Assembly (NCBI GenBank): GCA_044892525.1
Contig: CM097885.1
Span: forward strand, 20,772,001-20,836,000
From: Schmidtea polychroa
Lineage: Eukaryota
Direction: 5' to 3'
Length of the DNA: 64,000 nt
The translations under genes and the position numbers were made by a program. Positions 8,164 through 64,000 of this stretch are shown one piece after another; within the stretch, counting starts at the first letter, position 1, and every line of letters starts with the position of its first letter. Below the pieces are notes generated by a model that was not told the origin of the DNA, ran no database searches, and worked only from the letters and a program-made list of their open reading frames with translations.

Positions 8164-8665
8164 AGTAGAGGGATAGCGGCCCACTAAACCAGCGGCCCTC
8201 TGGGACAAAGACATACCCCTACCCCCCCCCCCCCGCCATTTAAAAATTTTTTTTCAAGGTAAAATTTTAAACAAAGACATATGACTCATCAAGGTCATTG
8301 AAACAAAGGCTATGACTCATTCAAGGTCATATGACTCATCCCATGACTCATTCAAGGTCATATGGCTCATCCGATGGCTCATTCAAGTTCATATGACTCA
8401 TCCAATGACTCATTCAAGGTCACATGACTCATCCGATGATTCATTCAAGGTCATTCTCAAGGTCATATGAGTCATGCGATGAGTCCTGCTAAATTTTTTA
8501 AAATTTAAATTCTCAGAGTTCCCGCCAATGGTTTTTATTATTTAATAGCTCATTCGAAAGGTATTTGAATGGTGAGTATTTGAGCCCATCGAAGGTCTAT
8601 GGAGGTTCAATAACCTTCAAAGTGTTCAATGGTATTGGTTACACTCAACATCTCACAAGGGTATT

Positions 8666-8756
<91 letters not shown>

Positions 8757-9250
8757 GTATTAATATATATACTCCGAGTCTATCCGACAAAATATTTTGT
8801 CCCCCTATGGGTAATGCTCACAATGGTACTGTTCACGCTCAACAACTCGCAAATCTACAAATCAACAAAACATACATCTATTTAAATAATAAAATAATGT
8901 AAAATTAACAAAGGTAAACTAAATATTGATGTACTACTATTCGCAGCATTATTGTTTGAAATTGGTAACGTTGAATTGATTTTCAGATATTCTATTGATC
9001 CTTTGATTGTTTGAATTTCGCTTAATAATAATTCAATCTTTTTAACAAATAATCATGCTTCTTATCAATAATTTTCATATTCTTTTTATTTTTAATAATA
9101 GAGTTATCGAAAACTTCAATATGATCAATCAATTTAATTTTTATATTTTTTATATTTTTATATACAAATGATAGTTCATAGCTGTTTTCTAAATTCTCCA
9201 ATCTTTGAGATATTCTTTTTCCTGGGTGCTTTGACCATTTTGGTTTGTCG
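8164..9250 (+). repeat. Left terminal inverted repeat of Polinton 1
   Basis: Reverse complement of ~23229-24395, including the mirrored ORFs 8565-8885 / 23589-23966 and the DKPKWSKHPGKRISQ segment. Confidence 0.92.
8281..8475. promoter_or_regulatory. ~31-bp tandem array of TGACTCA (AP-1) and TCAAGGTCA (NR5A/ERR-type) motifs in the left TIR
   Basis: Unit approx. TATGACTCATCCNATGACTCATTCAAGGTCA; about 8 TGA(C/G)TCA and 6 TCAAGGTCA. Confidence 0.7.
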
Positions 9251-9348
9251 TCAAACAAAGGTATACTCTGAGTTAATCCGACAAGATATTTTGTCCCCTT
9301 ATGGTTATTGCTCACAATAGTATTGGTTACACTCAACATCTCATAATG

Positions 9349-9433
<85 letters not shown>

Positions 9434-9442
9434 TATTACTTA

Positions 9443-9495
<53 letters not shown>

Positions 9496-9599
9496 ATCAT
9501 TATTATTATCATTATTATTATTTAAAAATGTATAAAATTGAAACTATCACAAGTTTTCAAAATACCAATAAAAATGAAAATGACCATATTAAAAGTAGT

Positions 9600-9990
9600 T
9601 ATCATTACTAATAATAAAAATGTTTAAACTTGAAAATTATCACATGTTTTCAATATAACAATAAAAATGCAAATATTAAAAGATGTTATTATTACGATTA
9701 TTAAAAATGATTAAACTTGAAAACTATTACAAGTTTTATATACACCAATAAAAATGAACACATGAAGTCTAGTTTTTTTTTTTTTTTTTTTTTAAAAAGA
9801 TATATTTTTAATAATATTCATCATTATCATTATCAGCTAATAATATATCATCAATATCAACATCTATATCGATACTATCATCGAAATCTGGGTTGAAATC
9901 TCCACGAAGCGGTCGAACATCATCCAATATTTGATGCTTATCATAGAAATCTTGGCTGAAATCTCCACATAGCTGGTTACAATCAACATA
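9600..9990 (-). repeat. Diverged tandem duplicate of the pPolB acidic 3' end and its downstream region
   Basis: QILDDVRPLRGDFNPDFDDSIDIDVDIDDILLADNDNDEYY* vs pPolB QILEEVGPLCGGFSPDFDDSIDIDVDIDDIILTDDDDDDYY*; downstream non-coding DNA is also repeated. Confidence 0.85.
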
Positions 9991-10011
9991 TCGCAAGTTT
10001 ATTTTTATTAC

Positions 10012-10072
<61 letters not shown>

Positions 10073-10296
10073 ATTATTATTATTATTATTATCATTATTA
10101 TTATTTTTATTAAAAAATGTTTAAACTTGAAAACTATCACATGTTTTCAAAATAATAATAAAAATACACATATTAAAAGATGTTATTATTACGATTATTA
10201 AAAATGATTAAATTTGAAAACTATCCGAAGTTTTTAATACATCAATAAAAAATAAAAATGAACACATTAAAAGTCTAGTTTTTAAAGAAGATATAT

Positions 10297-13151
10297 TTAA
10301 TAATAGTCGTCATCATCATCATCAGTTAATATTATATCGTCTATATCAACATCTATATCGATACTATCATCGAAATCTGGGCTGAAACCTCCACAAAGCG
10401 GTCCAACTTCCTCTAATATTTGATCACTTTCATCGAAATCTGGACTGAAACCTACAGAGAGCGGTCCAACTTCATCCAATACTTGATCATTATCTACAGC
10501 ATCAACCCCAAAATAATGCCTAAATGCGATACTATTATTTTTCCCCACCCATAATCGCTTGTCATCGTTATTTGTCAATGCGATTTTACTATTTTTGATG
10601 GTATATAGCTGGTGGTTCCGCGTCCCTATCCTAGTTTGCGGCACTGCAAATTCTACGTTGTTATTGTAGCAGTCTAAATATGACTGGTGCCCAATCTCTG
10701 TCCCCATTAATTTCACCCCTTTAGCCCTCATAGTATCTTTGACACCTAATAAACTATAGCACTTAGGTCTTAAGAAAACCCATTCCTTATACCCGAGACC
10801 TCTGCTTTCATCTTTAAATTTTCCTATCACAGAATCAAGGTTTCTCGAGTATAAGGGGTGTGCGGGATCATAATTAGAGGTATCTAGAAGATTATCTCTT
10901 ATCATTGCCGGCAAAAGAGTGTCTAGCTTACAGTGCTTAACCTCAAGAAAAAACGAATCAGTATCGCCGGCAACGATATTTATATCACATAAGAATTTGG
11001 ATCTATATTTTGCCAATTCATTATATTGCAGTTGATACATGCGTAGTGTAGACAGGTCTAGCACTGATTGGCCTATGTAGCTAGGCCTGTATAAACATAT
11101 AATATCTTTATTAAGATGAACCGCAATCAGATCATCCGCTATTTTAATTGATTTTTTGAAAGTTTGTTTGGAGGCGTATACAATCATCTTTGCTGATGAA
11201 TTGCATAGCCTCAAATTCATACGTTTTTTCAAATTCTCTACTGATTTACCATAGAGACTATTATTGAATAATTTATATAGATCTCTATACAGTTCACATG
11301 TTGATTTTGAACGTAAATTAGTATTTCGATCTATATATGTTTTGAAAATTGTTGATTGTTTAAATTTAATTGCTCTATGTACATGCTCAACTTCCTCACC
11401 TAATTTTATATACAGCTTGAGAAGCCGCCAATGAACATGGTTCTTCTTAGGCCAATGCGTGAGCATAAGCTTCTCAACTTTTGAATTAGGTGGACACATT
11501 TTTTCCGGAGCAAGCGGAAAATCATTCAAATATTCATGCACACGATTAGGGATATTGATGTCTTCTTCCATAGTATAACCATATGGAAGGTTTTCAATAT
11601 CTGCATTCACGCATTCACTCAACACATCATTCAGATTTTCATACACCCAAACAAAGTCACCATACGGAAGATTTTGGCTAAGAGCCCAACCATATAAATT
11701 ATTTATATCTATATACAAAAGTTCTGTATCTTCAGAACTTGCTACATAATGTTTGTTAACAAATGTTAACCCACCCCGTATTCCACCTTCGTAGAAATTA
11801 TACATTTCCATATCCTGTAGAACTTCTATAGGTTCCTGTAATGTCATGAGCGCTGACGCCCATGACATACCTGGAATTCCATAGAAGTTTAAAGGTTCAA
11901 GGCCGTTATAAGCAATTGCTTTGGCACGGAATTGCTGAAAATAATCTGCCAAGAGGAATACGTCCAATTTAAGGTACGTTAACATATAGTCTAACATTGT
12001 TTCGCAATTTTGCTGAACCCAGATTTCTTGGGCGATAGCATTTTCTTCATTAGATACAGAACTCCAAATCGGAGGTAATTCATGAGTAGATTCAAGAATT
12101 TCGAGTGATGTTGCAAAGTCGTAAGGAAATATGCCCTTTGCTCTCACAATACTACCATCAAAAACAGAAGAAGTTAAAGGTAAATCTGAAAGAGTTTTAA
12201 CTGCCTTTGCTAACGATGAGTTAACAAATTGCATACTGTCGATAAAACGAACAGTCAATTTGTTAATATTTACAATCAAGGATATAAATTTTTCAGTGGT
12301 GGTTGGAACGATATTTAATTTCCAAGATGGAAAATCATTCAAACCATACTTTAAAATGTGATGTAAGTCATACCCCTTCAAATTATGAAAGACAATGGGT
12401 AACTGTTTGTTTATTCTCCTAGAAACATTGCAATTTCTACAGGCAGCACCAAGATACTTACCTGTGAAATGATCATGGTCCTTAACCTTATCTTTTATAA
12501 AATGTTTACAGAGATAACAAGTCCTACAGTTGTTGAACTCCAGTTCCTCATTGAAAGACAGAGTATTAATGAATTTTCTACCATGAATTTCATAATACGG
12601 GAGGACAATTGTGACAGCAATTTCCTCCACCTTCTTTAAAATTTCAAAAACACATTCCAAGCCTATAAAATTAAAATATGATGTTGTGTTAGTGTAATTG
12701 TTAATTAATAATAGACCTGCTGTTATTGGTTTGTGCATTTGGTGATGATTTATATTCCCAGGTAAAATAGCCTCAAAGTCCGCGTATATTACGAACGGTG
12801 GGGTAATCATCTTTGAATAATCTTTAAACGTTAAATTTTTATTTTTAGGGAGCGTGTAAAGGGTGGTTCCTATTTGATTTTTAGCGCACAATGCAACATG
12901 TACCTTAAAGGTTTTGAATTCTTTAATTTCTCCATCTTTTTCAATTTGAATAAGAACTGTAAACTGGACTTTTACAGATCCCATCTTTTCAATTTCCACA
13001 TTAATTTTATTTATAATTTTATCCGTAAAGGAGATTTGAATTAAGTTTTTATGTTCTAAATCAAATCGAATATTTTTACGGGAACCCTTTAAATCTATCT
13101 CTATTTCAGGTTCATCATTTATATCTATTTGAATATTTTCTATATTGTTTT
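10297..13151 (-). CDS. Protein-primed family B DNA polymerase (pPolB) with EndoVII-like insert; 5' exon not located, N-terminal region short
   Basis: YADFEA, CYLC..DHDHFTGKYLGAACRNCN, FHNLKGYDLH, YIDINNLYG, KLFNNSLYGK, GDTDS; the poly-I start of the ORF track is an (ATT)n tract ending in a likely acceptor AG at 13152-13153. Confidence 0.93.
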
Positions 13152-13152
13152 C

Positions 13153-13208
<56 letters not shown>

Positions 13209-13345
13209 TAATAATTGCCCCAAATAAATGTAGCTTGCAGTGAGCATGCATCTACATCTCTTCTCATATAATAATAATAATAATTATTCCAATAAAAGTA
13301 GTTTGCAGTGAGCATGCATCTACATCTCTTCTCAAATAAAAATAC

Positions 13346-14031
<686 letters not shown>

Positions 14032-14217
14032 TATGACAGATTTGTTACATGTATTAATTTGTTAAAATATTATTATCAATTTATGATTTATAAAGATTTA
14101 ATTACTTATCAAATAAAGTTTTTGAATAATTAATCATTTAAATTAATACATTTAACGAAGTGTTTTAGTAAAAATTTGTTAAATATTATAAAAAATAAAT
14201 TAAAAAAATAAAAAATG

Positions 14218-14851
14218 CTAACATTTCCATTCCATATCGGAATCAGAATCATCTTCTAATTCATCCCGCATAGGGGCATCTCCAATATCAGTGGGGGCAT
14301 CAGAGTCATCAACTGCATTTGCAATAAATGTGGAGGCATCAGATTCATTGACGACATTTCCAATATCAGTGGGGGCATCAGAATCATCAACTGCATTTGC
14401 AATAAATGTGGATGCATCAGATTCATTGACGACATTTCCAATATCTGTGGGGGCATCATCGACGATATTATTAACTACTCCTTCATTTGTAACTACATTT
14501 GTTTCATTATCTGAAGGTTCTTCTTAAATATATTTAATAAATAAAATAAAACTTACCACTGTCATCACTAATAATGATTTCTTCATCATCGGTTATAATA
14601 ATAAGTTCATTATCTTCCATAAGATTAATTTCATCTAAATATTAATAATTTAATAAATAAATAAATAATTTAATTTACCATCATCATCGTCACTAATAAT
14701 AATTGGGGCATCGTCCATATTATTTTCTGCTTCGGTAACTTCGTACCATAAATTAGCTAAATGTGAATAAAATAATAATAAATAAAAGAAAAAAAAATTT
14801 ACCGTTTTCTCCAGCCAAAATTGCTCTTAAAATATTATTTTGATTATTCAT
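14218..14851 (-). CDS. Spliced 169-aa acidic protein with several SIM-like motifs; exons 14851-14803, 14756-14679, 14634-14557, 14522-14218
   Basis: Three phase-1 GT-AG introns (46, 44, 34 bp) give an open frame MNNQNNILRAILAGENANLWYEV...PIIISDDDDDEINLMEDNELIIITDDEEIIISDDSEE...DSDMEWKC*. Confidence 0.85.
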
Positions 14852-15279
14852 TTTGAAATTGTTGATAATTGTTTTGTTTGCAAATTTGTAAATAAATATT
14901 TTTTAAAAGTGACAAATTTGGAATTTGTGAATGTTTATAAAGAAAATGAAAATTCCCTGTCCCAGCCAATCAGAATTTAGACACACACATATATAAACTA
15001 AATATTTTACTCTCTTGACCAATCACATTGCGTCTACACATGCCTTCTTATTTTTCATGTGACTGTCTTTATTAGTCACGACTTTGTTAAGATGCACTGT
15101 GCATGCTCCAGGCATGTGATGTCTTTATGACAAAAATAATAATAATATTTTTCAAAATAATAATAAATTTAAATAAAAATACTAATTTTTAATCAAATAA
15201 TAATATTAATAATATTATTATTAATAATAATAATAACAATAATAACAATATTAATAATAATACTAATAATAATAATAAT

Positions 15280-15372
<93 letters not shown>

Positions 15373-15410
15373 TTGAAATAAAAGATAAATAAAGCAAATA
15401 ATTGCAAGAA

Positions 15411-15458
<48 letters not shown>

Positions 15459-15613
15459 TATAATAATAAGAACAACAAAGGATACAATATACATTTATTA
15501 AACATCAAATTTTTTATACAACAAATTTTTTATACAACAATTTTTTATACAACAATTTTTTATACAATAATAATAATAATAATAAGAACAGCAAAGGATA
15601 CAATATACATTTA

Positions 15614-15998
15614 TTAACCATCAAATATTTTATACAACAACCAAGCTAAACAATGTTGACCACATGTTTGGGTCAATCGATTTTGAAACATAGTTTTATT
15701 ATACATAATAGGTTTCCCCATTGTTTGCAGTTTTGATATCAATAAAGCCGGGTAATAAAAACCCATAGGATCGAATACGAATATATTACTAGGTTTCACA
15801 CATATAGCTATCCAATGTTCTCCACCAAGATGAGACGATTGAGTATTGATGATTATGGCTTGATTATTTCTCAAATATGGAATTTTATCGAGAGGAAAAA
15901 CTCCTACAAATTCATTTCCCAATATCTGTTTTCCAATTCGATTAACCTGAACAGAACTACTTTAATAAATTAAATAGTATCAAAAAAACTTACTCCAT
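15614..15998 (-). CDS. Adenain-like cysteine protease (116 aa; 5-nt first exon, intron 15960-15993)
   Basis: ATGGA|gtaagt...attaaag|TAGT gives MDSSVQVNRIGKQILGNEFVGVFPLD; catalytic motifs GEHW, FDPMG, QTCGQHC. Confidence 0.92.
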
Positions 15999-16025
15999 GA
16001 CAACTTTCTATATTTCTGTACACAT

Positions 16026-17234
16026 TTATACCAACACAGTTCTATTTGCAGTAATTTGAACTTCATTTTCAAATACTCCATAGATTATTACATGGACTGG
16101 TTCAGAAATTGCTTTTGCAAACTTTATATCCAGTCGTAAATTTCCATTTTGGGGTAATTGACTCTGATTTAAATCAAAATTGGGGGCTAAAACAAATGTA
16201 AAAAATGGGTATTTGGTTTTAAATTCTTCTAGAGTTATTCCACAATTCGAATTTTCATCTAAATAACCCAGATTTCTAACAATACTCTGCATATATGTCG
16301 CACAGTAATTGTCATTCTCGAAATCTTGAATATATGTTTCTCTATAATCAGTATTTTTCGACAAAGTCAATGATGTACCACCAAAGTTTTTGAAAATTGA
16401 GTTGGACGCAGTATATGATCCATTATATTGTGTTTCACTTTGAAATGTTATCAGAATAAAATTAGGCAGTCTTCTATCACCAAATATTTGTTCTTTATAG
16501 AATGATGAAGCACCTTTAGCAATAGCGAATTGTACAATTTCCTTTGTTTTTAATGGATAAATTGCATGTTTTGAATTAAGACCTAATTGATGACCAGCTA
16601 ATACTGAGGGGTCTACTCGAACTCTTCTCACCAATAATTTTGCATCAACTAATTGACATATTGGTGCACCAATTTCACTAGTAAGAGATAATGCAGAATC
16701 AGACCTTTTCAGTCTAATGTGTAGTAAATATTTCGGTTGATCCATAAAATCGAGTTGTAATGATGAGCACATGGTGAAAACCTTTGAGCCTTTAACCCAC
16801 TTTTTTCTTTCATCATCTGCTGCTGCATAACCCATAGGAGTAAGGCATGTATTTTTAGTATCGGAATTGTAATTTAAAATAGTTTCTATTAATGCCTTGT
16901 GAATGAATGTATTATTTCCACCCTCAATCTTGATATTATTAAATCCCAACACTGCATCTTTAAACAGAGTATGAAACATGAAATTGTTCGGTATTACATC
17001 GGCATTGGCATCCAAAACTTTTCTATCTTTATCTACAATCTTGATCTGAACAGTCAATAAAGTATCGTTCAAATCTAAATATTCAGTTTGCGAACCATTA
17101 ATATAAAACTCTATATCATTTCTACTATCGGTAATTGAATTTATAGGAAAAGCTTCCTCAAACGCCCCAAATTCAATTACCGCTTGAGGCGATGGTCTAT
17201 CAAGTATACATAATTCAGATTTACCACAAATCAT
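16026..17234 (-). CDS. Polinton major capsid protein (double jelly-roll)
   Basis: CGKSELCIL...IEFYINGSQTEYLDLNDTLL...GNLRLDIKFAKA motifs typical of Polinton MCP. Confidence 0.88.
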   Translation of the reverse strand: MICGKSELCILDRPSPQAVIEFGAFEEAFPINSITDSRNDIEFYINGSQTEYLDLNDTLLTVQIKIVDKDRKVLDANADVIPNNFMFHTLFKDAVLGFNNIKIEGGNNTFIHKALIETILNYNSDTKNTCLTPMGYAAADDERKKWVKGSKVFTMCSSLQLDFMDQPKYLLHIRLKRSDSALSLTSEIGAPICQLVDAKLLVRRVRVDPSVLAGHQLGLNSKHAIYPLKTKEIVQFAIAKGASSFYKEQIFGDRRLPNFILITFQSETQYNGSYTASNSIFKNFGGTSLTLSKNTDYRETYIQDFENDNYCATYMQSIVRNLGYLDENSNCGITLEEFKTKYPFFTFVLAPNFDLNQSQLPQNGNLRLDIKFAKAISEPVHVIIYGVFENEVQITANRTVLV

Positions 17235-17599
17235 TTTGCAAATATAGTTCCATGTCCTTTCATTCGTTTGTTTATACGTGATATTCCATGTCTTTTACGT
17301 TTTGGAACAGGAGCTGGAGCTGGAGATTTTTCTTTTTGAAACATACCTGCAACCCCGGGTAAAACTTTCCCTAATTCAGCTAAAGCATTTGTTTTTGGAG
17401 ATGGTAATATTTTCTGTTCATTCATAATAACATCTTTTGCAGTTTTCATACCAAAACTACCAATACGTTTAAGAATAGGCAATGCAAATCTACCAATTGT
17501 TCTCAACCATCCCGATCCGTACTGTTTACCAATAAAATATGGTAATTCACCGCCAGATTGGCTACCACTATACATACTAATAATATCAGAATTCGGCAT
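17231..17599 (-). CDS. Small virion-core / membrane-active precursor (QxGxG plus amphipathic helix, basic tail)
   Basis: QSGGELPYFIGKQYGSGWLRTIGRFALPILKRIG; lies between the minor and major capsid genes. Confidence 0.7.
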   Translation of the reverse strand: MPNSDIISMYSGSQSGGELPYFIGKQYGSGWLRTIGRFALPILKRIGSFGMKTAKDVIMNEQKILPSPKTNALAELGKVLPGVAGMFQKEKSPAPAPVPKRKRHGISRINKRMKGHGTIFAK

Positions 17600-18659
17600 C
17601 TACTTTACGAAAATGTAATGTCAAATGGGTTTTTGAACCTTTTAGAAAGTTTATAAGTTTTCCACTATCATCACGAATATTTATTTCTATATTGTTTATA
17701 CATGAACTTGCTATTGGTAAATACATGGGATTATCGATATTTATATTGACAACTTCATCATGTTCATATTTTCCAATCCATACCGATTTCAAAAGAGGAA
17801 CACTGGAATCACCAACAATTATGGGTTCGATAATGTTAGTATATATGAAAATTTGTTGATGATGTTCTAGTATTCTTGGTTTGCGTATACCAGTCGATTT
17901 TTCTCGATATTTTTGCTTATATAATCCAAGTGAATTTGCAAAATTTTTATCAAATGTAACTTCGCAAATATCATCATTCAAAATGAAGGTAAACATCAAA
18001 TCTTTCACAATTTCCAAATTTTTAAATATGTGTGAACAATTGAACTTTAAATATTTAAGTAATATATCAAGTTTATCAAAATATAATTCATCAGCAAAGG
18101 TGAATGATTCTTCAACTTCATCATTATACGACACAGATATTTTGATTTCTTCTTTCACTATACTGTTTGCTTCAAATAGATTAAAACGTAATAAATACTC
18201 GGTCTCCGTAATAATATTTTTCAACTTATTGCAACCCATTCGTTTGGCATCTTCAATAGTTTCGAATGTTATTGTAAATGGTTTAAAATCACAACTGATA
18301 TTTAATCCATCCTTGTAAAACATATAGCAATGCGAATCTAAAATTTGATTCGGAATATGATATGTTTTATCATAATTACTGATAACAAAGATACCGCTAC
18401 ATGTTTTCACAATATTCCTTTTGAAATCAATCTTACATTGACTATAAAATGGGAATGTATTGTACACGAATGTAAAATCTTGCAGTGCAACTTCCCAGTC
18501 ACCATTTAAAGAAATCGGATTCTGGAGATTGACCATGAATTTACTGGCTTGATTGTCTGGATGAATTAATGGGCAACTATTGCTCGGCAAAATAGTATAA
18601 AAATTCACTTTACTAGATCTTTTGCTGATATCCATGACGGGTTTTGATAACCATGCCAT
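17586..18659 (-). CDS. Polinton minor capsid protein (penton); exact start uncertain
   Basis: FYTILPSNS...PDNQASKF..L..PISLNGDWEVAL; FIYTNIIEP..VGD..VPLL; IEINIRDDSGKLINF...LTLHFRK. Confidence 0.9.
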   Translation of the reverse strand: MAWLSKPVMDISKRSSKVNFYTILPSNSCPLIHPDNQASKFMVNLQNPISLNGDWEVALQDFTFVYNTFPFYSQCKIDFKRNIVKTCSGIFVISNYDKTYHIPNQILDSHCYMFYKDGLNISCDFKPFTITFETIEDAKRMGCNKLKNIITETEYLLRFNLFEANSIVKEEIKISVSYNDEVEESFTFADELYFDKLDILLKYLKFNCSHIFKNLEIVKDLMFTFILNDDICEVTFDKNFANSLGLYKQKYREKSTGIRKPRILEHHQQIFIYTNIIEPIIVGDSSVPLLKSVWIGKYEHDEVVNINIDNPMYLPIASSCINNIEINIRDDSGKLINFLKGSKTHLTLHFRKVDAEF

Positions 18660-19243
18660 TTGACATAGTATTGTTTATCCTTGCCGACCTTTTTAGTTTT
18701 CAATATTTTTTGAATTCTAAATACTTTTGGGGGAGGAATGACTTGTAATTCCTGCTCATAAAATTTCCCTTGTACAATATTATTACCATTATCTTTGATG
18801 ACATACATTACAGGATTCTGTTTAGTATTTATTTTTGAAATTACAAAGACTTCATCACTCCAATTTGTATCAAAATTTTTAATAAATGGTGATGCACTAA
18901 TTTTACTAATTCTAACATGGTCACCAACTTTATATTTAGGTTTTGCAATTTTTACAGAATTTTTAGAAGTCAATGATGTTTTTGATGTAATATCAACCGG
19001 TCTCAATCCATTCAGTCCTCGATGTGATGAATGATTATAACTTGTTATTATTTTCGGTAATACATTTACCCATTTTTTATTAACTTGATGCACGAACAAT
19101 TTCTTTAATCTATCTCTCAATGTTCGATTAAATCTTTCGACATGGGCAGCTTTGTATTGAGAATGTACCGAGTAGTGATTTATTTTCAGTTTATCGAGAA
19201 TTTGCTTAACTTTGCTATTGTAGAATTCTTTATCTAAAATAAT

Positions 19244-19341
<98 letters not shown>

Positions 19342-19597
19342 CTAAATCTGTTTGCAAGTTATTAGGATGTCCATCTTTAAATAAAATATTAATTACCTTG
19401 GACATTTCTTCTGCAGATTTTGCCTTGACTGGTATTGCTCGTGCAAACCTGCTGTATACATTAATACATGTTAAAATATATTTATTCCCATTGTTAATTT
19501 TCGAATAAGGTATCATCTCCATCAAATCCATTTGCCATAAATCGTCAATACCAAATGTTTTATATTTAATGTCGGGCAATGAAGGATTAGCACCCAT
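18605..19597 (-). CDS. Retroviral-type DDE integrase with C-terminal chromodomain; microsatellite-filled intron 19234-19341
   Basis: WQMDL, LQTD, HVERFNRTL, YYVKWHGY..SWI; the poly-I run is bounded by GT...AG (108 bp). Confidence 0.93.
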
Positions 19598-19600
19598 TGT

Positions 19601-20134
19601 TTATGATTGATTTCCTACAACTCCACCTAATAATGATAATACCAGAGGTATCAATGCACCAATAAATCCACCTTGTTGTTTATATATAATTTTCCTCATT
19701 TGCTTACGATTTTTATTATTTACTAATGATAACAAAGGTTTCCTATGTTTGCTCAATAAATGCTTTTTTGATTTACTGATTTTAATTTTGCCTTTGACTA
19801 CTTTAAGTATAATATTGAGTAAATCATCGACAACAAAATTTGGGAATGATTGCAATATATTCATTCTTTTCATACTCGGGGCCTTTAACAATGCATTAAA
19901 AAATGGAAAACTGCGATGATTTTTAACTACTTTTTTACCGGTTTTACGGGTTTTACGGGTTTTACGTTTAGGTTTAGGATTTTTCGAAATAAGATTCATT
20001 GCAGAGAAATTTTCAGTTACAAGTTTTTTAGATGGTGTATAACTAGTTGTTGGTGGAACTTTTGGAATTTTAATACTCTTTCTAATACTTTTTCTTAATT
20101 TCCTAATATTTGTCACCCTTGCTTTTAGAAACAT
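19601..20134 (-). CDS. Basic core-protein precursor with C-terminal GG^F hydrophobic tail
   Basis: K/R-rich (KRKTRKTRKTGKK); ends QQGGFIGALIPLVLSLLGG, resembling adenain-cleaved core precursors. Confidence 0.7.
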   Translation of the reverse strand: MFLKARVTNIRKLRKSIRKSIKIPKVPPTTSYTPSKKLVTENFSAMNLISKNPKPKRKTRKTRKTGKKVVKNHRSFPFFNALLKAPSMKRMNILQSFPNFVVDDLLNIILKVVKGKIKISKSKKHLLSKHRKPLLSLVNNKNRKQMRKIIYKQQGGFIGALIPLVLSLLGGVVGNQS

Positions 20135-20152
20135 TATTATTCATAGAGGTTT

Positions 20153-20779
20153 TCAACTTTGTTTATAAACCATGGCACCTTTTGGGTTGAAAATATCTGT
20201 TTTTACTCGTAAATCATCGGGACATTGTTGTGTGAAATCAAGAAATATATATCCATGAGGTATTTTTGTAGCGTCTTGAAATGCACTGATAAGAAAATTA
20301 CGATTGTTAGGGTATGCTTGACGTGCAAGAAAATCAATCACTGTTGCATCTCTAGGATTCTTGAAAATAACTAAATATTGTACATTTAAATTACGTGTTC
20401 GATGTGCCCCACCTTGATGAAATAGATTTTGTGTTATGAAAATAACTGTTACACCGACATGTCTGCTGATCTTTGTAAATAAATTATTAAAATCTTTTTC
20501 TTTATTAGCTTCTTGATACAAATCATCGATAATAATGACATCGCCTTTCTTTAATCGGCTGGACCAGTTTTTATCGAATCCCTTTACTATTTTCATGTTT
20601 TTTAATTTACAGAAACTTGATTGAGTTAATCCATGTTCTTCATCAGCACCCCTATGCCAATAAATCCTGTTGAATTTTGATTTGAATAAATTTGATTTTA
20701 GTAATTTACAAACAAATAATGTTTTTCCACTACCACTCGGACCAACGATTTGGTATACTGCATCATTTCTTAATTCCAT
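20153..20779 (-). CDS. A32/FtsK-like genome packaging ATPase
   Basis: Walker A GPSGSGKT, Walker B IIIDD, SRH..VTVIFITQN; likely start is MELRND at 20779. Confidence 0.93.
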   Translation of the reverse strand: MELRNDAVYQIVGPSGSGKTLFVCKLLKSNLFKSKFNRIYWHRGADEEHGLTQSSFCKLKNMKIVKGFDKNWSSRLKKGDVIIIDDLYQEANKEKDFNNLFTKISRHVGVTVIFITQNLFHQGGAHRTRNLNVQYLVIFKNPRDATVIDFLARQAYPNNRNFLISAFQDATKIPHGYIFLDFTQQCPDDLRVKTDIFNPKGAMVYKQS

Positions 20780-20882
20780 TTCAAAACTTTTATAAATATA
20801 TGTGTATTTGTTTATATTCGATGATTTAATGAACTCGTGCTCAATTTGTATATAAAGACTAATTTTCATAAATGATTTAATA

Positions 20883-21320
20883 ATGTTAGCAAATATAAAT
20901 TATCGAGGAAATTTTGATGTATCGAATATGAGGTTCCCACCAGAGAAACCCCAGCAAATTATCGATAGAAGCGGGAAATATCCGATAATATTTTTCAAGA
21001 CTGGTAAATGCAGAATCATGGGATGTAAGAAACCTTTGGATATTAATAAATTACAATATCGAATAAATAATATTACAATCCAATCAATTACCGTTACTAT
21101 GGATATGGGACATAGTATCAATCTATATAACATGTCGAAAAAATGTGATTGTATGTTTGAACCGGAATTGTTTCCGGCACTAAGACTATTAAAATATAAC
21201 CCTATATGTGTCAACGTGTTTGCTAGTGGAAAGGTTGTCATGTTGGGGTTGAGAAATTTGGAGTATAGAGAATTTGTTGATAATGTTCGAAATGAGATAA
21301 TTTCATTGGTCGATTTCTAA
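20883..21320 (+). CDS. TATA-binding protein (TBP)-like protein, 145 aa
   Basis: IFFKTGKCRIMGCK / ITIQSITVTMDMGHSINL / FEPELFPAL / VNVFASGKVVMLG align with TBP LIFASGKMVVTGAK / FKIQNIVGSCDVKFPIRL / YEPELFPGL / LLIFVSGKIVLTG. Confidence 0.9.
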   Translation: MLANINYRGNFDVSNMRFPPEKPQQIIDRSGKYPIIFFKTGKCRIMGCKKPLDINKLQYRINNITIQSITVTMDMGHSINLYNMSKKCDCMFEPELFPALRLLKYNPICVNVFASGKVVMLGLRNLEYREFVDNVRNEIISLVDF

Positions 21321-21379
21321 TTGGTTATTGATTGATTTAAACAAACGGTTTTTTGTTTAGGATTCATTTATTCAACAAA

Positions 21380-21789
21380 ATGTACAAAATACCAAGCGCA
21401 GCAAATCTAATGAAAGATATTGACGACTATGGTAAATTTAAAATTTTATTTTCACATTTTTTATATTTATTATTTTAGAAAAATATTTAGAAGTAATGCT
21501 GAATAGGATAAAATATTATTATCCTCAAATTGCAGAAATAATCAAGGATAGAGAACCAGAAATCATTCCAGATCTCATATTCTATTCCACTCAAATTAGA
21601 ATCATGGAGGTATTCCATCAATTCCTATGGGATATCAAGATTAATAGAACCATGAAACAAATGGAGCCGGAGTACCAATGTATGTTCGGATGTTCATGTT
21701 GTGCCGATCGATATCGGCGATATGTCGAATGGGAGTTAGTGAAAACTCTGAGAAGGTTTCACTACTCCCGGATTGTTGATAAATATTAA
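21380..21789 (+). CDS. Spliced 120-aa hypothetical protein with Cys cluster (intron 21432-21478)
   Basis: ATG at 21380; G|gtaaat...ttttag|AA joins in frame to ORF 21496-21789; QCMFGCSCCAD. Confidence 0.75.
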
Positions 21790-22090
21790 TAAATGTATTT
21801 TTGTTTCTATTGCGTTTTTATATTTGAAATAGTAATAATAATAGTAATAATATAAATAATAATAGTAATAATAAAATAAATAGTAATAATAATAATAGAA
21901 ATAATATAAATAGTAATAATAATAATAATATAAATAATAATAGTAATAATAATATAAATAGTAATAATAATAATAGAAATAATAGAAATAGTAATAATAA
22001 TAATAATAATAATAGAAATAATAATAGAAATAGTAATAATAAAACATTAATAATAATATGTCACATTAATAGAACATAAATGCAGCATTA

Positions 22091-22168
22091 ATGCAAATGA
22101 CATGCAAATTTAAACAAAGACATGCTATAATCTGATTGGTTGATAGGCATGAGTCAAAGGTATAAAAA
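22091..22168 (+). promoter_or_regulatory. Compact Pol II promoter: 2x octamer, AACAAAG, inverted CCAAT, AP-1, TATA
   Basis: ATGCAAAT (22091, 22102), AACAAAG, GATTGG (22134), TGAGTCA (22150), TATAAAA (22161), ATG at 22202. Confidence 0.6.
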
Positions 22169-22201
22169 CCATGTAACATTTCAATTTAATCATTATTCAC
22201 T

Positions 22202-22636
22202 ATGACCAAGAAAATTTCATGCACCGAAAAACCTAAAGAAATGGTACAACCAGTTCAAATGTTCCACAACTACAAAATGTATTTTTTGAAAGACGAAATC
22301 ATTATGAAATTGGTTGCACCAGTCAAGCTAATTCCAACTAAATTTCAATTCTTATCCGGCACGCTTTCAATGATTGATGTCAAAACTATTGATGATGTTT
22401 TTAAACGGTTAGATTCGAATCTATCGTGTAATCAACATGCATGGTTCAACAATAGATATGCAAGATTTTATGATGCTTTTGATGAAATCAGTTTCAAAGA
22501 AAATGAAAATTGGTATATAACAATTGCAATCCAGGGATATAAAGTTGATAATAATGATGTATATTCTCCTATTTGGAAAATTGTGTCTGCTAGACTTTCA
22601 CAAATATTTCACAAATATCCATGGTTGAAACTTTGA
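22202..22636 (+). CDS. Hypothetical 144-aa protein (possibly OB-fold ssDNA-binding)
   Basis: Clean ORF with upstream TATA; beta-rich aromatic C-terminal half WYITIAIQGYKV...YSPIWKIVSARL. Confidence 0.65.
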   Translation: MTKKISCTEKPKEMVQPVQMFHNYKMYFLKDEIIMKLVAPVKLIPTKFQFLSGTLSMIDVKTIDDVFKRLDSNLSCNQHAWFNNRYARFYDAFDEISFKENENWYITIAIQGYKVDNNDVYSPIWKIVSARLSQIFHKYPWLKL

Positions 22637-22674
22637 CTTGATTATCTAGAAAATAAATATTAATAAAATATAGA

Positions 22675-22986
22675 TTATAAAAGTATTACTTCTTGAGACC
22701 ACTGATAATAATGTTCCGAGTGCCATAAACCTTTTTCGATTATGATCTTCATATAAGCGAACCCTACTAGTATTCGGGTCCACTTCATCTCATCGTCACA
22801 TAGGCAGTTAAAAATCCTATGAAAATAGAATTTTTTCGTTTCCAAGCACTCGGAATTGATCATATCCTGATAATCGATATGATTTCCTTCGATTATCTTT
22901 TCGGTCCGGTCCACTAGGAAACTCAGGCTTTCCAAAATGTTCTTGTTTATAATTTCGCTTAAAAGATTTTCCATAAAATGAGACAT
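22675..22986 (-). CDS. Bcl-2-like protein (BH1-like motif), 103 aa
   Basis: FHRIFNCLCDDEMKWTRILVGFAY resembles BH1 F..V...F.DG..NWGRIVA.F.F. Confidence 0.6.
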   Translation of the reverse strand: MSHFMENLLSEIINKNILESLSFLVDRTEKIIEGNHIDYQDMINSECLETKKFYFHRIFNCLCDDEMKWTRILVGFAYMKIIIEKGLWHSEHYYQWSQEVILL

Positions 22987-23091
22987 TTCTACAATAATTT
23001 AAAATATGATGTTTTATTTATACTAATACCGTATGATTTTGATTGGTTGATAGACTATAAATGTAAAAGAAAGGCTTTGATTTGATACACA

Positions 23092-23502
23092 ATGAAAACT
23101 ATATTCATATTGCTAATTGTTATAACGAGTGTGTGCTCACACAATGCAACAATAACAGTGGAGTCTTTTAATAAATCGATATGTGTTTGTCCGAATACAG
23201 CCAAGTTGATGGATATTTTATATATTCTCGATAAACCAAAATGGTCAAAGCATCCAGGAAAAAGAATATCTCAAAGATTGGAGAATTTAGAAAACAGTTA
23301 TGAACTATCATTTGAATATATACAAAATATAAAAATTACATTGATTGATCATATTAAAGTTTTCAATAACTCTATTGTTGAAAATAAAAAGAATATGAAA
23401 ATTATTGATAAGAAGCATGATTATTTGTTAAAAAAGATTGAATTATTATTAAGAGAAATTCAAACAATCAAAGGATCAATAGAATATCTGAAAATCAATT
23501 GA
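23092..23502 (+). CDS. Secreted coiled-coil protein, 136 aa; 3' part lies inside the right TIR
   Basis: Signal-peptide-like MKTIFILLIVITSVCS; heptad-like C-terminus; upstream GATTGG and TATAAA. Confidence 0.7.
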   Translation: MKTIFILLIVITSVCSHNATITVESFNKSICVCPNTAKLMDILYILDKPKWSKHPGKRISQRLENLENSYELSFEYIQNIKITLIDHIKVFNNSIVENKKNMKIIDKKHDYLLKKIELLLREIQTIKGSIEYLKIN

Positions 23503-23717
23503 ACGTTACTAATTTCAAACAATAATGCTGCGAATAATAGTTCATCAATATTTAGTTTACCTTTGTTAATTTTACATTATTTTATTGTTTAAATAAATGT
23601 ATGTTTGTTGATTTGTTGATTTGCGAGTTGTTGAGCGTGAGCAGTACCCTTGTGAGCATTACCCATAGAGGGAACAAAATATTTTGTCGGATAGACTCGG
23701 AGTATATAGATTATTAC

Positions 23718-23810
<93 letters not shown>

Positions 23811-24395
23811 TAATAATAATAATAATAAAAATAATAATATTAATAATAATAATAATAGTAATAATAATACCCTTGTGAGATGTTGAATGTAACCAATACC
23901 ATTGAACACTTTGAAGGTTATTGAACCTCCATAGACCTTCGATGGGCTCAAATACTCACCATTCAAATACCTTTCGAATGAGCTATTAAATAATAAAAAC
24001 CATTGGCGGGAACTCTGAGAATTTAAATTTTAAAAAATTTAGCATGACTCATCGCATGACTCATATGACCTTGAGAATGACCTTGAATGAGTCATCGGAT
24101 GAGGCATGTGACCTTGAATGAGTCACCGGATGAGTCATATGACCTTTAATGAGTCATCGGGCGAGTTATATGACCTTGAATGAGTCATTGGATGAGGCAT
24201 ATGCCTTGAAGAGTCATGGCATGAGTCACATGACCTTTAATGAGTCATCGGATTAGTCGTGGTCTTTGTTTCAATGACCTTGATGAGTTCTATATCTTTG
24301 TTTAAATTTTGACCTTGAAAAAAAAATTTAAAATGGAGGGGGGTATGTCTTTGTCCCAGAGGGCCGCTGGTTTAGTGGGCCGCTATCCCTCTACT
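23229..24395 (-). repeat. Right terminal inverted repeat of Polinton 1
   Basis: Mirror of 8164-9250, with a longer TGAGTCA/TGACCTTGA array at ~24044-24290. Confidence 0.92.
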
Positions 24396-31396: not shown

Positions 31397-33715
31397 GATA
31401 AGAAATGAGAGAAAAAAAGGCTTGTTAAAGTTCGTATTGAAGTGAGAATGAGCGATTTTAGGTCTAAATATTTTATTTAATAAACACTGCGAAAGTGGCT
31501 TACGTAATTATTTATTTGAATTATATTTGTATAAATGAGTGAATGAATGAACAAAACAAATTACTGGATTCGAAGTATTACATATACGAATAAGTTGAAG
31601 ATAACTTTATTTTTCATATTTAAATATATTCATATAGACTACGGTGGATCATCACGCCTCAGGGGTGGGACATGTTAGCAATTATCAATTATTCCACATA
31701 CATTCTTTTTAATATAATATGCTTATTCACGACTAAATATAACAACGTACATACAGCAATTTCACCGACCGTTATTTTTGCATAATGTCAATACTGATTA
31801 TCGAAGTTTGACAGCTACTTTAAAGGGGCCTGGTGGAGCATATGAATTTTGAAAGTACTACGGTGGAGCATATAACTTTTGAAATACTACGATGACTCAT
31901 GGTATAAAGAAGGTCGGGAAACACTGATATAAACAGGCGCGTATTCTCTTACACCTATGTAAGTTTACTATAGGCGTGTTAATTTTCAAATTGCCTCCGC
32001 TCCCTCAACTATTAAAATGTTAATATTAAATAAAAAATATATACTAAATAAAATGTGTGAGTTTTTGTCATTAACAAAATTGACAATTAATAAAACTCTA
32101 TTTAGGCTAATATAAAAAGTTAATAACAAAAAACAAATGAATAATTATACACAATTACAGTTCACAAAATTTCTATAATAACAATTTTTTCTTTTATCAT
32201 AAATATTTATTATTAGGATAACATCGTTTTGTGAATCACTAAATAACTCCATAAACTTTATTTAAGCAATTATGCACTAAATTTTAATGTTTTCTAATTG
32301 TTTGTTATTTAAACAGTTTCCATCTTCTATTTAAAATATTTTTATATAATAAATATTTTTAAAATTTTAAAATTCCAAAAATTTACAATTAAAATCTTTT
32401 AGATTCTTCCAGCTTCTTCATATTTATTATTTCCTGTTTAAATTAAAATTTACTGTCAAAAGATCCCATATAATGTCAATTTGTGTATTTTTTATTATAG
32501 AAATTGTTTATAATTATCCATTTGCTTTTTGTCATTAACTTTTTCTATTAGCCTAAACAAAGTTTTATTAATTGTCAAATTTGTTAGTAAAAGTGTGGCA
32601 CTGTCTCACAATGTCCTTAACTGATGATTGTGAGACGGATGGATTCATTTTCCTGACTGACAACAATGTCCGATTTACTCCAAAATGATGATCTGTGTGG
32701 AAATTCCGTATTAGATCCATGTTTTCATCAACCTTACTTGCACTTAAAGCAGTCTCTACATTAGGCTCAAAACCGTTGTATCTGTTTTCAGTTGTAACAA
32801 CATCGCATTCGGCACCTTCATCATTTCGTCTGCCTTGTTTAACTCCGTCGGCACTAACTCCACCGTGACCTTCAGACTGTATTCATTTATAATCGACTTG
32901 AACATCTCAAGGCGACGTCGGACCAATAATTCGGATTTGGTCTTGAATCATCATTGAGTACCGCATAAAAACAGCTATACAATTAAGTCAAACCACTTGG
33001 AACTTCCAATCAATGAGTATTTCTATTTCTTTCAATGTAGAATCTAGGTCAACGGGATTTATGTGAGCTGCATGGTCTGACTTGCGCAACCAAGTTAATA
33101 ATCACGCTTTCAGGTCAGTTTTTCATATTTTCTTACACATTTTTATGGCTGCAATGCAAAAAACTCACTTTAATTTACAAAAAAATCACAAATTTAAATT
33201 TAAATTTGTTTCATTTTTAATGAGCTATAAATCACATACTATAAATCCACCGTAGTACTTTCAAAATTCATATGCTCCACCAGGCCCCTTTAAAGTAGCT
33301 GTCAAACTTCGATAATCAGTATTGACATTATGCAAAAATAACGGTCGGTGAAATTGCTGTATGTACGTTGTTATATTTAGTCGTGAATAAGCATATTATA
33401 TTAAAAAGAATGTATGTGGAATAATTGATAATTGCTGACATGTCCCACCCCTGAAGCGTGATGATCCACCGTGATTTATATGAATATATTTAAATATGAA
33501 AAATAAAGTTATCTTCAACTTATTTGTATATGTAATACTTCGAATCCAGTAATTTGTTTTGTTCATTCATTCACTCATTTATACAAATATTATTCAATTA
33601 AATAATTACGTAAGCCATTTTCGCAGTGTTTATTAAATAAAATATTTAGACTTAAAATCGCTCATTCTCACTTCAATACGAACTTTAACAAGCCTTTTTT
33701 CTCTCATTTCTTATC
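31397..33715. repeat. ~470-bp inverted duplication (31397-31867 and 33246-33715) around a ~1.4-kb spacer
   Basis: GATAAGAAATGAGAG...GTACTACGGTGGA is mirrored by TCCACCGTAGTAC...CTCTCATTTCTTATC with few mismatches. Confidence 0.9.
32070..32590. mobile_element. Decayed MITE-like element with ~80-bp imperfect inverted repeats
   Basis: TAACAAAATTGACAATTAATAAAACT..TAGGCTAATA mirrored by TATTAGCCTA..AGTTTTATTAATTGTCAAATTTGTTA. Confidence 0.55.
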
Positions 33716-60100: not shown

Positions 60101-61592
60101 TTCTCAATTTGGATATGTTGTAGAATGTGATCTTGAATATCCCAATGAAATAAAATCCAGAACTAGATATTTTCCATTTGCTCCTGTAAGAAGAAAGATC
60201 TCTCCTGAAGAACTATCAGATTGGCAGATTGCTCAGAATAGAACACCATGTATAAAACTTTTATGTGATCAAACAGATAAAACTGATTATCTTTGTCATT
60301 ATAGACTCCTCCAGTTTTATCTCTCACATGGAATGGTTTTTAAAAAAGTACATTCTATAATTAAATTCCGACAAGCTCCTTTTATGAAAAAATTCATCGA
60401 GGGAAATATCTTAAAAAGAAATGCAGCAAAGAGAGCTGGAAATGCTTTTCTTGATATGATTTATAAACTTTTAAACAATGCAGTCTTTGGAAAGACAATG
60501 GAGAATATTGATAAATATACTCGTGTAGAGCTCTTAACCAATACAACAAAAGATCTTAATAAATATAATCGAATAATTGGAAAGCCTACATTTAAAAATG
60601 CAGAGATATTCTCTAGTAACCTTATAGCTATAGAGATTAAAAACTCTGTAAAAACTTATAATAAACCAATCTTTATAGGTTTTTCAATTTTAGAACTTTC
60701 AAAGCTTCAAATGTATGAGACCTACTATGATGTTCTAGTACCCCATTTTGGAGATCGAATATCCATGCATGCTATGGACACTGATAGTATGTTTTTAAAA
60801 GGTCATAGTAAAGATTTAAAAAAGGAAATAAGTGAAAACGAAACCTTAAATAAATTAATAAACAACTCTGGAGAATTATTTACTTTTAAAGATGAAAAAC
60901 CAAATACTCCAATAAGTGGAGGAGTGTTTATTAGACCTAAACAATATTCTCTTGAAATGAAAGACAAACCAATTATGAAAGAGCATACAATAAAATTTAT
61001 AATAGGGGAGGGAGAAGGATCTGTTGAAATAGATCACACATTTGAATATCCTTCATTCCCTGAAAACCCGAAAAGCTATAAAGAAAATAAAAGTAAAGGA
61101 ATTCAAAAATCAGTGTCAAAAACCTTCACACATCAAGAGTATAAAGATTCATTAAATATAAATTATAAAAATAAAATTGCTAAAACCCATCATCTTAAAT
61201 CAGAGAAACATAATATATATCTTGAAGAGTGTAACAAGATTGCTATAACAAATTATGATGATAAAAGATTTATACTTTCTGACTTGAAGACAACATTACC
61301 TATTGGAAATGATTTAATCCCTATAATAAAAAATCTTGATAAAATAAATGAAATTTATAACCTAGAGATTACAGACCTTCAACTTGCTAAAGTAGAAATC
61401 CAATATCCTGAAATATTAATTCCTAAACCTTTATATAATCAAGTTCAAAATATAAAACCTATAGAACTTAAATATTTTAATACTGATCCTGAATATATCC
61501 AAGGACTAACACCAGAAGACTTTAAATCACATAAATTAATGTTAAAAAGCATTACTGCAGAAATAATTATAAATCAATTACGACTGGTCTAA
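57199..61592 (+). CDS. pPolB with N-terminal zinc fingers, vOTU-like protease region and EndoVII-like insert; 1-nt frameshift near 57237
   Basis: FNCEICEK/FKNKTALTSHKKSKDH, CSKC..H...C, CSAC..H...C; NKDNKCFQWSIL..HYILIKNF; YCDFEA, YIDATALY, KLLNNAVFGK, MDTDS. Confidence 0.93.
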
Positions 61593-61616
61593 GAATTAGA
61601 ATTTTAACACTATAAA

Positions 61617-62171: not shown

Positions 62172-62265
62172 AACCAACGATATTTAATTTTTTAATAATA
62201 AAATGTCGACAATTAATTTAAGCAACTATAGCAACCTGATCTACTTTTTTAAAAATACACCCATT

Positions 62266-62862: not shown

Positions 62863-62870
62863 TTTAATAA

Positions 62871-63881: not shown

Positions 63882-63905
63882 TTATTAATAATTTAAAATG
63901 AATCT

Positions 63906-63998: not shown

Positions 63999-64000
63999 CA

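Follow-up and report, generated by a model that had tools for sequence, protein, structure and literature searches.

A locus in Schmidtea polychroa bears on the question of whether Polintons in animals can still assemble particles and of how, lacking an RNA polymerase of their own, they would activate their capsid genes. The stretch analyzed here, referred to as the window, comprises 64,000 nt (GenBank assembly GCA_044892525.1, contig CM097885.1, forward-strand positions 20,772,001 to 20,836,000) and holds a Polinton/Maverick element with a gene for a 145-aa TBP-like protein, hereafter mini-TBP. An earlier note on this DNA had placed five small genes between the packaging ATPase gene and the right terminal inverted repeat (TIR), and had proposed that they resemble an adenovirus-style early region and, with a SIM-motif protein, are the best candidate in the window for an undescribed system. 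The five open reading frames (ORFs) are indeed at that place, encoding 145 (mini-TBP), 97 (Cys-cluster protein), 144 (predicted single-stranded DNA-binding protein, SSB), 103 (Bcl-2-like protein), and 136 aa (predicted cell-surface protein), with four genes on the plus strand and the Bcl-2-like gene on the minus strand. The rest of the element reads on the minus strand as ATPase, ORF177, integrase, penton, ORF122, major capsid, a broken protease, and PolB, and the genes from ATPase through major capsid abut end to end, as the note had said of the virion genes. Our analysis suggests that the mini-TBP probably, though far from certainly, reads an ATAAAC box in front of such genes, and that the pair would form a one-protein late-gene switch, a counterpart of the late switch of herpesviruses.

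8164 to 24395: Polinton/Maverick element of subfamily A, a degraded copy of 16.2 kb, delimited by its TIRs, ends, and core genes

An ATAAAC box distinguishes two promoter classes

The 80 nt before inferred gene starts were compared across metagenome loci thinned at 75% protein identity (29 loci); five loci with canonical TBPs were left out of the promoter counts. Of all 6-mers, ATAAAC stood most often in front of non-early genes: it was found in 55/77 sequences and, when ORF122 and integrase were removed post hoc, in 50/59. It preceded every ATPase (6/6), ORF177-family (13/13), major capsid (8/8), and PLA2 gene (2/2), as well as penton (8/12), protease (4/6), exonuclease-like (9/12), and integrase genes (4/10) and one of eight ORF122 genes. 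Before TBP and SSB genes it was found in only 3/44 and 1/12 sequences (4/56 together versus 55/77; Fisher p 1e-14). These genes instead carried a canonical TATA box (23/44 and 6/12, respectively) and the word TCA[TC]T (30/44 and 7/12). The mean for ATAAAC in shuffled sequences was about 0.1 per sequence or lower, and gene bodies held 0.04 per 80 nt.

The box lay mostly 32 to 47 nt before the ATG, with C or T preceding it in 52 of 54 cases, and was strand-specific, since the reverse strand had it in 1/77 sequences; the variant GTAAAC was found in 2/77. Its reading frame varied, and it also formed part of stop codons or lay between genes. Where it falls within an upstream ORF, it forces codon choice in the gene tail: Ile-Asn is written as ATA AAC in 32/44 gene tails versus 12/76 gene bodies.

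In the window, the ATPase, ORF177, penton, ORF122, and capsid genes have the box in front of them, and all five cassette genes lack it:

20809 to 20816, minus: late-type ATAAAC box of the packaging ATPase gene, whose start is taken as 20776, as in sibling copies
20160 to 20167, minus: late-type box of ORF177, inside the 3' end of the ATPase gene
18672 to 18679, minus: late-type box of the penton gene, inside the 3' end of the integrase gene
17648 to 17655, minus: late-type box of ORF122, inside the 3' end of the penton gene
17269 to 17276, minus: late-type box of the major capsid gene, inside ORF122

The two promoter classes fit the cascade that the earlier note had envisaged, in which early genes are followed by structural genes. 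However, sibling copies carry a sixth, acidic gene in this region, and it has a late-type box in subfamilies A, B, and D, so the region is not purely early. The promoter words that the note had described are there: TATA-like words precede four of five genes (not Cys) and CCAAT/ATTGG words four of five (not TBP), the Bcl-2-like and surface genes sharing one CCAAT.

Family C, another Polinton family represented in the window, served as a negative control. No TBP or SSB profile match was found in 10 stretches from 5 of its copies, and the box preceded 1/10 of its genes, there only 8 nt from the start. Family C lies at 57441 to 64000 and in an adjoining stretch (L132, G000:C1:20834001-20844000), has a PF03175-type PolB and a PLA2-like domain fused to its integrase, and its ATPase is 100% identical in 143/145 scored copies.

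The mini-TBP has lost helices and carries an altered DNA face

20883 to 21320, plus: mini-TBP gene, 145 aa (PF00352, E 1.3e-15; structure model with pLDDT 96)
20849 to 20855, plus: canonical TATA box, the early-type promoter word of the mini-TBP gene

All 145 residues of the mini-TBP model could be aligned to yeast TBP 66-240 (Z 13.2, rmsd 2.5), a stretch relative to which 30 residues are missing. The model has no helix of at least 4 residues in positions 1 to 60, the N-lobe helices H1 and H2 being lost, and keeps the two-lobed saddle fold of the TBP family (PF00352). In TBP, the missing helix H2 is the surface for TFIIA, TAF1, Mot1/BTAF1, and Brf1 (passages of PMC7221094). As sequence features, the glutamates that contact TFIIB are kept, with E93 acidic in 88/88 mini-TBPs and E95 a Glu in 87/88.

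Three of the four intercalating phenylalanines are retained (F38, F97, F113), while the F99 position is Pro in 87/88. The positions matching yeast 194, 203, and 205 are Arg (86/88), Cys (88/88), and Asn (88/88); changes at these three positions of yeast TBP give the altered-specificity TBPm3 (passages of PMC1636458). Judged by the DNA contacts listed in PMC12529657 and the TBPm3 positions, the family retains N69, F116, F190, and F207 and has fixed changes at V71, F99, V122, T124, N159, V161, I194, V203, and L205, and 13 of the 15 positions considered were identical across all 11 distant or second-subfamily mini-TBPs checked. Such a conserved but altered DNA face fits a reader of a different word.

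Recent capture from a host TBP was disfavored, as 41 mini-TBPs fell on one side of a 100/99 branch and 8 other TBPs on the other, in a tree with a midpoint root only and with three host rows that are single exons. A TBP scan of viral contigs gave one full-length viral TBP of canonical type. Two overlapping minus-strand ORFs were set aside, the one at 20900 to 21241 as a shadow frame and the one at 21736 to 22047 as a repeat.

No TFIIB-like ORF was seen in a Pfam scan of the window ORFs of the Polinton, and none of the 13 best TFIIB-family matches (opened, or with the same frame length) lies inside a Polinton. The host genome has thirteen intronless TFIIB-like frames of 301 to 310 codons in two clusters (L188:4575-5486 and L189:4185-5096; G000 C3 38.2-39.1 Mb and C1 23.8-24.2 Mb), as well as spliced TFIIB- and Brf-like genes and at least six TBP-like loci (L174-L179); its basal transcription machinery looks expanded.

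A candidate early-late program and its reader

The favored course of events is as follows. Host TFIID and RNA polymerase II (Pol II) would transcribe the TBP, SSB, Bcl-2-like, and surface genes from ordinary TATA promoters, and AP-1 and nuclear-receptor words may boost this early transcription in subfamilies A and D. The SSB would assist protein-primed replication, and the Bcl-2-like protein would likely delay the death of the host cell. The mini-TBP would bind the box and dock host TFIIB through E93 and E95 while escaping the regulators that act on helix H2 (TFIIA, TAF1, Mot1/BTAF1, Brf1). Boxes written into the tails of upstream genes would give each packed virion gene its own promoter. The Bcl-2-like, surface, Cys, and acidic proteins would be exchangeable lineage accessories around a TBP-SSB core.

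Several points weigh against this reading. The thinned sequences are still related, and the p-values thus overstate independence. The negative control is a single TBP-less family, and no relative that could serve as a further control turned up when viral contigs were scanned with capsid or ATPase as query. As the loci were found via TBP, the box could predate the TBP or serve a host factor. Most ORF122 and integrase genes lack the box, and it was found at none of three PolB starts checked. The yeast numbering comes from motif offsets and the aligned range, not from a residue-by-residue structural alignment. The transcript evidence (see the Bcl-2-like gene below) is one contig from one run whose RNA status was guessed, and it derives from some copy of the family. 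Finally, ATAAACA doubles as a word of the forkhead type and as a variant of TATA, and PDB entry 1qn3 is a TBP-DNA structure that has C at this position.

The likeness to a TATA variant and a forkhead site also speaks for a different reader: host TBP/TRF paralogs or a forkhead factor could read the box, with the mini-TBP titrating host TFIIB and so damping host transcription, or acting at the replication origin. The abundance of TBP-like loci in the host is in keeping with this, and glutamates of this kind would suit the capture of TFIIB no less than activation. However, a host reader does not account easily for a DNA face that, and not just the TFIIB stirrup, is nearly invariant and unlike that of cellular TBP, nor for the rarity of GTAAAC and of reverse-strand boxes, nor for a TBP-less family in the same host that is mostly without the box. 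We regard this explanation as unlikely, if well short of negligible.

The SSB gene

22202 to 22636, plus: predicted SSB gene (ORF144), 144 aa, with an OB fold of the T7 gp2.5/nucleocytoplasmic large DNA virus type
22135 to 22201, plus: SSB promoter, with ATTGG at 22135, an AP-1 word at 22150, TATA at 22161, and the initiator-like word TCATT at 22190

The labels given in the earlier note to the TBP-like, SSB, and Bcl-2-like genes were borne out, the first by Pfam and fold, the second by fold, and the third by two exons and a spliced transcript. For ORF144, which has 112 homologs and a model with pLDDT 91, sequence searches gave no useful match in Pfam, PDB sequences, or Atlas, and only the fold search placed it. 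The top four of 48,161 chains were African swine fever virus (ASFV) CP312R, DUF2815, Enc34 SSB, and T7 gp2.5 (Z 6.9-7.2, i.e., below 8; rmsd 2.8-4.5 over 101-132 residues; identity 4-10%). BFVD gave 34 matches at E<=0.001, the named ones being from giant viruses, and Foldseek reached E values down to 2e-6 against uncharacterised viral proteins. ORF144 is predicted to be a gp2.5-like single-stranded DNA-binding protein. Its predicted OB fold resembles those of T7 gp2.5, Enc34, and ASFV CP312R, but the window SSB has no acidic C-terminal tail. The last 8 residues of the window SSB stem from a deletion, and the protein has 136 aa in 16/20 sibling copies. A poly(A) end was found after the SSB gene in run X5.

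The likeness to giant-virus proteins also bears on a virophage-like explanation, in which a large DNA virus would act as helper, the box being a promoter of that virus, and the late genes would await co-infection; passages in the virophage literature discuss promoter motifs and reactivation induced by giant viruses. Against this, spliceosomal introns and poly(A) signals in the cassette point to nuclear Pol II, and the box goes together with the TBP of the element itself in both PolB classes. We consider a helper virus very improbable.

Only the TBP and SSB genes recur outside the genome

Outside the genome, 107 mini-TBP proteins were found, and 80/81 metagenome loci were kept. A Polinton core gene was present in 22/30 of the metagenome mini-TBP loci of at least 3 kb. 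An SSB-like gene lay within 2 kb of the mini-TBP in 43/75 loci and in 16/17 of those with 1 kb on both sides, although three SSB clusters tie to ORF144 only weakly (probabilities 69, 29, and 14%). Apart from the SSB, no recurring partner gene of the mini-TBP was seen in the metagenome loci, and the Cys, acidic, Bcl-2-like, and surface genes were found in 0/81 outside loci. The synteny check thus gave no support to a five-gene unit shared among Polintons: what is conserved is the TBP-SSB pair, and the Cys, Bcl-2-like, and surface genes are local, lineage-specific accessories, cargo of a known kind. The mini-TBP and box were also found at a locus with a PF03175-type PolB, so that the system appears to span both PolB classes.

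Other genes were noted in the metagenome loci. A gene of about 160 aa follows the protease and stands just before the mini-TBP in a 20-locus cluster (L044, L060, L067, L069, and others). We take it to be DEDD-exonuclease-like; it has no Pfam match, is the exonuclease-like gene of the box counts (late box 9/12), and was not seen in subfamily A. Proteins that by eye are leucine-rich-repeat-like, with a start resembling a signal peptide, come right after TBP and SSB in L058, L061, L072, and L073, and KilA-N and PLA2 genes are found in another locus group (L088, L077).

Within the genome, subfamily A has at least 150 copies with a mini-TBP 98-100% identical (150 of 4161 candidates scored). Subfamily D has the same six cassette genes in the same order (5/6 stretches reach the TBP). 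Subfamily B is mostly 86-96% identical to A in the core genes but 54% identical in TBP, and its cassette has a divergent Cys gene, a spliced SSB gene, and an inverted acidic gene; remnants of the Bcl-2-like and surface genes were found in 1/12 B copies and in none of the others. Comparison of A with D (three pairs; one Cys value not computable) gave a ratio of nonsynonymous to synonymous substitution rates (dN/dS) of 0.09-0.41 for every cassette gene, which indicates that the genes are real and under purifying selection, whereas dS between neighboring cassette genes ranged from 0.23 to >2, pointing to gene-by-gene exchange.

23940 to 24395: outer right TIR, containing a 31-bp tandem array of AP-1 and nuclear-receptor half-site words, mirrored at 8164 to 8620

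The outer ~456 bp of the two TIRs hold 8 and 9 AP-1 words (TGA[CG]TCA), against a shuffled mean of 0.05-0.08, and 6 and 8 TGACCT/AGGTCA words, against about 0.2. The earlier note had host AP-1 and nuclear-receptor signals act on the TIRs. Both arrays are present in subfamilies A and D, but B, despite its mini-TBP, has half-sites only, and the TBP-less family has neither. To judge from these words, the arrays may tune expression in some subfamilies and would not be part of the core switch.

These data bear on the idea that the whole cassette is one conserved early unit, triggered by AP-1 and nuclear-receptor signals on the TIRs. The strong arrays in A and D, the AP-1 word in the SSB promoter, a gene order that A and D share and B retains in part, and the purifying selection on all genes are what such a unit would be expected to display. 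Against it stand the lack of the accessory genes in the 81 outside loci, the missing AP-1 word in the TIRs of B, the late box of the acidic gene, and the uneven dS, and we give it little credence.

The window copy is degraded

The element is bounded by TIRs longer than 1 kb and by a target-site duplication of 6 bp in which one position is mismatched. Together with PolB, an rve integrase with a chromodomain, and ATPase, capsid, penton, and protease genes, they make it a Polinton/Maverick (adintovirus). The packaging ATPase matches Pox_A32 (Pfam E 4e-7), and the integrase of this damaged copy matches rve (E 2.4e-5) and Chromo (E 2.4e-4), both below the curated cut-off. PolB is 27% identical to a PF03175-positive PolB, and the PF03175 profile matched neither the window PolB nor an unbroken 1320-aa sibling PolB; beta-class adintovirus PolBs are marked by identity of less than 30% to the PF03175 type and by an OTU domain at the N-terminus. 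Pfam gave no match for the capsid, penton, and protease of the window element; we take these labels from sequence motifs and from co-linear homologs in related loci.

Sibling copies were picked as 20 of the best TBP matches and are biased to an intact TBP. Their alignment revealed a deletion in the window copy:

22609 to 22617: deletion junction, where about 740 bp of sibling DNA is missing (4 sibling copies aligned)

The missing ~740 bp holds the acidic gene, with its late-type box, and most of Bcl-2 exon 2, and the spacing between the SSB and Bcl-2-like genes was longer than in the window copy in 20/20 siblings examined. The window copy therefore cannot supply a complete Bcl-2-like or acidic protein.

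The inverted repeat of the window copy extends into the surface gene (8662-9250 matches 23229-23812), whereas in siblings it ends near the end of that gene. At the left end, 8662-9250 repeats the 3' portion of the surface gene in inverted orientation, and 9255-10290 has small internal duplications, among them another copy of the 3' end of PolB; the arrangement looks like end-to-end templating. A RING gene occupies the left end in 4/4 sibling left ends fetched, where the window has the part-copy of the surface gene. This RING-finger gene (zf-C3HC4_3, E 9e-9; L135, L144, L190-L195) stands beside the left TIR in both subfamily A and subfamily B, is found at the right end of some B copies too, and is absent from the window copy.

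Long AAT microsatellites are found at 13150-13480, 19240-19340, 21830-22050, and 23710-23870; the integrase copy would translate as poly-Ile, but it has GT and AG on its flanks and probably represents an intron. Upstream of PolB, 14220-14830 on the minus strand is a spliced acidic gene with several IIISDD-type words, which resemble SUMO-interacting motifs (SIM-like), and with CCAAT words and one ATAAAC (14938) upstream. Passages of Starrett (PMC8502044) place 'Oncoid' genes at this position upstream of PolB. Elsewhere in the window, a 455-nt inverted repeat pair 1.4 kb apart (31413-31867 / 33246-33700) is probably a separate small DNA transposon.

Accessory genes

21380 to 21789, plus: Cys-cluster gene (GCSCC motif), with a predicted short exon at 21380-21431 and a second exon from 21479
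22617 to 22986, minus: Bcl-2-like gene, with exon 1 at 22690-22986 (BH1-like), a 44-bp intron at 22646-22689, and an exon 2 remnant
22987 to 23091: divergent promoter of the Bcl-2-like and surface genes, 105 bp, with TATA at 23022 (minus) and 23056 (plus) and a shared CCAAT at 23042-23046
23092 to 23502, plus: predicted cell-surface protein gene, 136 aa, with a hydrophobic N-terminus and a coiled coil

The ORF of the Cys gene spans 21496-21789 (plus, 97 aa), and the gene is probably spliced. It is fast-evolving (dN/dS 0.20-0.25 in 2/3 pairs, dS saturated), its protein has no family match in Pfam, and its profile found nothing among the metagenome clusters. The Cys proteins of A and D can be tied only weakly to that of B (profile probability 24%). 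A histidine phosphatase assignment was rejected, the Atlas matches being under 0.9. The sixth, acidic gene of the siblings encodes a C-terminal Cys/His cluster, and its frame was found in 18/20 copies, the other two not being anchored. By inspection, LXCXE, which in 'Oncoid' or E1A-E7-like proteins lies beside a zinc-binding pair of cysteines, is absent from the Cys and acidic proteins.

The Bcl-2-like ORF spans 22675-22986 (minus, 103 aa). Exon 2, with a BH2 motif and a hydrophobic transmembrane tail, is present in 18/20 siblings and lost in the window copy. Against PF00452, exon 1 of siblings matches profile positions 6-69 (E 0.004-0.014) and exon 2 positions 86-100 (E 0.34), so that each alone is below the Pfam cut-off but the two match consecutive parts of the profile. 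The best solved-structure matches were BCL2A1 and Bcl-xL, and a Thr stands at the BH1 glycine position. The sibling gene has the layout of the Bcl-2 family (PF00452), with BH1 and BH2 in order and a C-terminal anchor. In run X5, one contig lacks precisely the 44 nt of the predicted intron, and a poly(A) end was found after this gene too. The stretch 19360-21800 is covered by contigs that show no informative joint, and contig depth cannot rank the genes. Two contigs of run X5 open with runs of T where plus-strand stretches have their 5' ends (L116:2806, L116:3718); these are possibly antisense poly(A) ends or library artefacts.

The earlier note had called the last gene product a secreted protein. 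The ORF is there, but in 18/20 siblings the protein has 163-166 aa and a hydrophobic tail, which by eye is predicted to be GPI-signal-like (glycosylphosphatidylinositol), and is predicted to be at the cell surface; in the window a premature stop ends it at 136 aa. Its dN/dS is 0.29-0.35, and a fibrinogen match below the cut-off was read as a coiled coil only.

Comparison with known viral systems

Adintoviruses share with the window element TIRs, PolB, an rve integrase with a chromodomain, ATPase, penton, capsid, and protease, and their accessories Bcl2, IAP, 'Oncoid', and SSDBP have been compared explicitly to small DNA tumor viruses (Starrett 2021, passages of PMC8502044). For adintoviruses, the comparison with an adenovirus early region is already published. 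In the passages of that paper, TBP occurs only as a legend label, in a figure on MELD viruses with adintovirus-like PolB from non-animal datasets, and its main-text passages hold no promoter classes, late box, or TBP-SSB pairing. In our literature search, for which subscription journals and Repbase reports were outside the scope, only the Starrett papers were relevant, none on a Polinton TBP family or late box was found, and ATAAAC did not occur in any paper returned by one of the searches; term searches of the available parts of PMC8097293, PMC11131425, PMC11071296, and bioRxiv 10.64898/2026.10.13.758929 gave no mention of TBP.

The late TBPs of herpesviruses, ORF24 of Kaposi's sarcoma-associated herpesvirus, BcRF1 of Epstein-Barr virus, and UL87 of human cytomegalovirus, read TATT (passages of PMC12529657, also for ORF24 below). 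The mini-TBP is proposed to share with them a TBP fold with a more polar DNA face, a non-canonical TATA word, late genes as targets, and the use of host Pol II. ORF24, however, has 752 aa, works in a six-member complex, keeps the four phenylalanines, and is without the TFIIB glutamates, with a predicted TFIIB clash, whereas the mini-TBP has 145 aa, Pro at F99, the glutamates kept, and ATAAAC instead of TATT. By analogy, the mini-TBP may work like the herpesvirus viral pre-initiation complex, in which the large viral TBP contacts Pol II directly, but is not a member of it. TBPs of large double-stranded DNA viruses likewise lose the N-lobe regulatory surface, for which evasion of Mot1/BTAF1 has been proposed, and keep the first TFIIB glutamate in ~40%, mostly together with a viral TFIIB (Ravarani 2020, passages of PMC7221094). 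In the mini-TBP, by comparison, both acidic residues are near-invariant and the helices are deleted outright. The mini-TBP with its box would be a variant of viral late-gene control; accessory cargo of this kind is already published.

Implications

On the sequence patterns described here, we hold the balance to be even on a broader proposal, namely that a large Polinton branch comprising both PolB classes runs an autonomous early-late program, in which a 145-aa TBP would read its own ATAAAC, borrow host TFIIB, and do so with the host-regulatory surface deleted; no smaller viral pre-initiation device would then be known. The accessories come as less of a surprise, anti-apoptotic adintovirus cargo being published, and their exchange around the TBP-SSB core would be the element adapting to one host. 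The TBP-box pair makes late-gene activation directly testable, with one small gene and a six-letter promoter word. If the proposal is true, the pair would be a natural orthogonal TBP-promoter pair and an independent solution to late transcription beside that of the herpesviruses, one that relies on the host TFIIB which herpesviruses seem to bypass, and these 'transposons' would have a virus-type late phase in animals.

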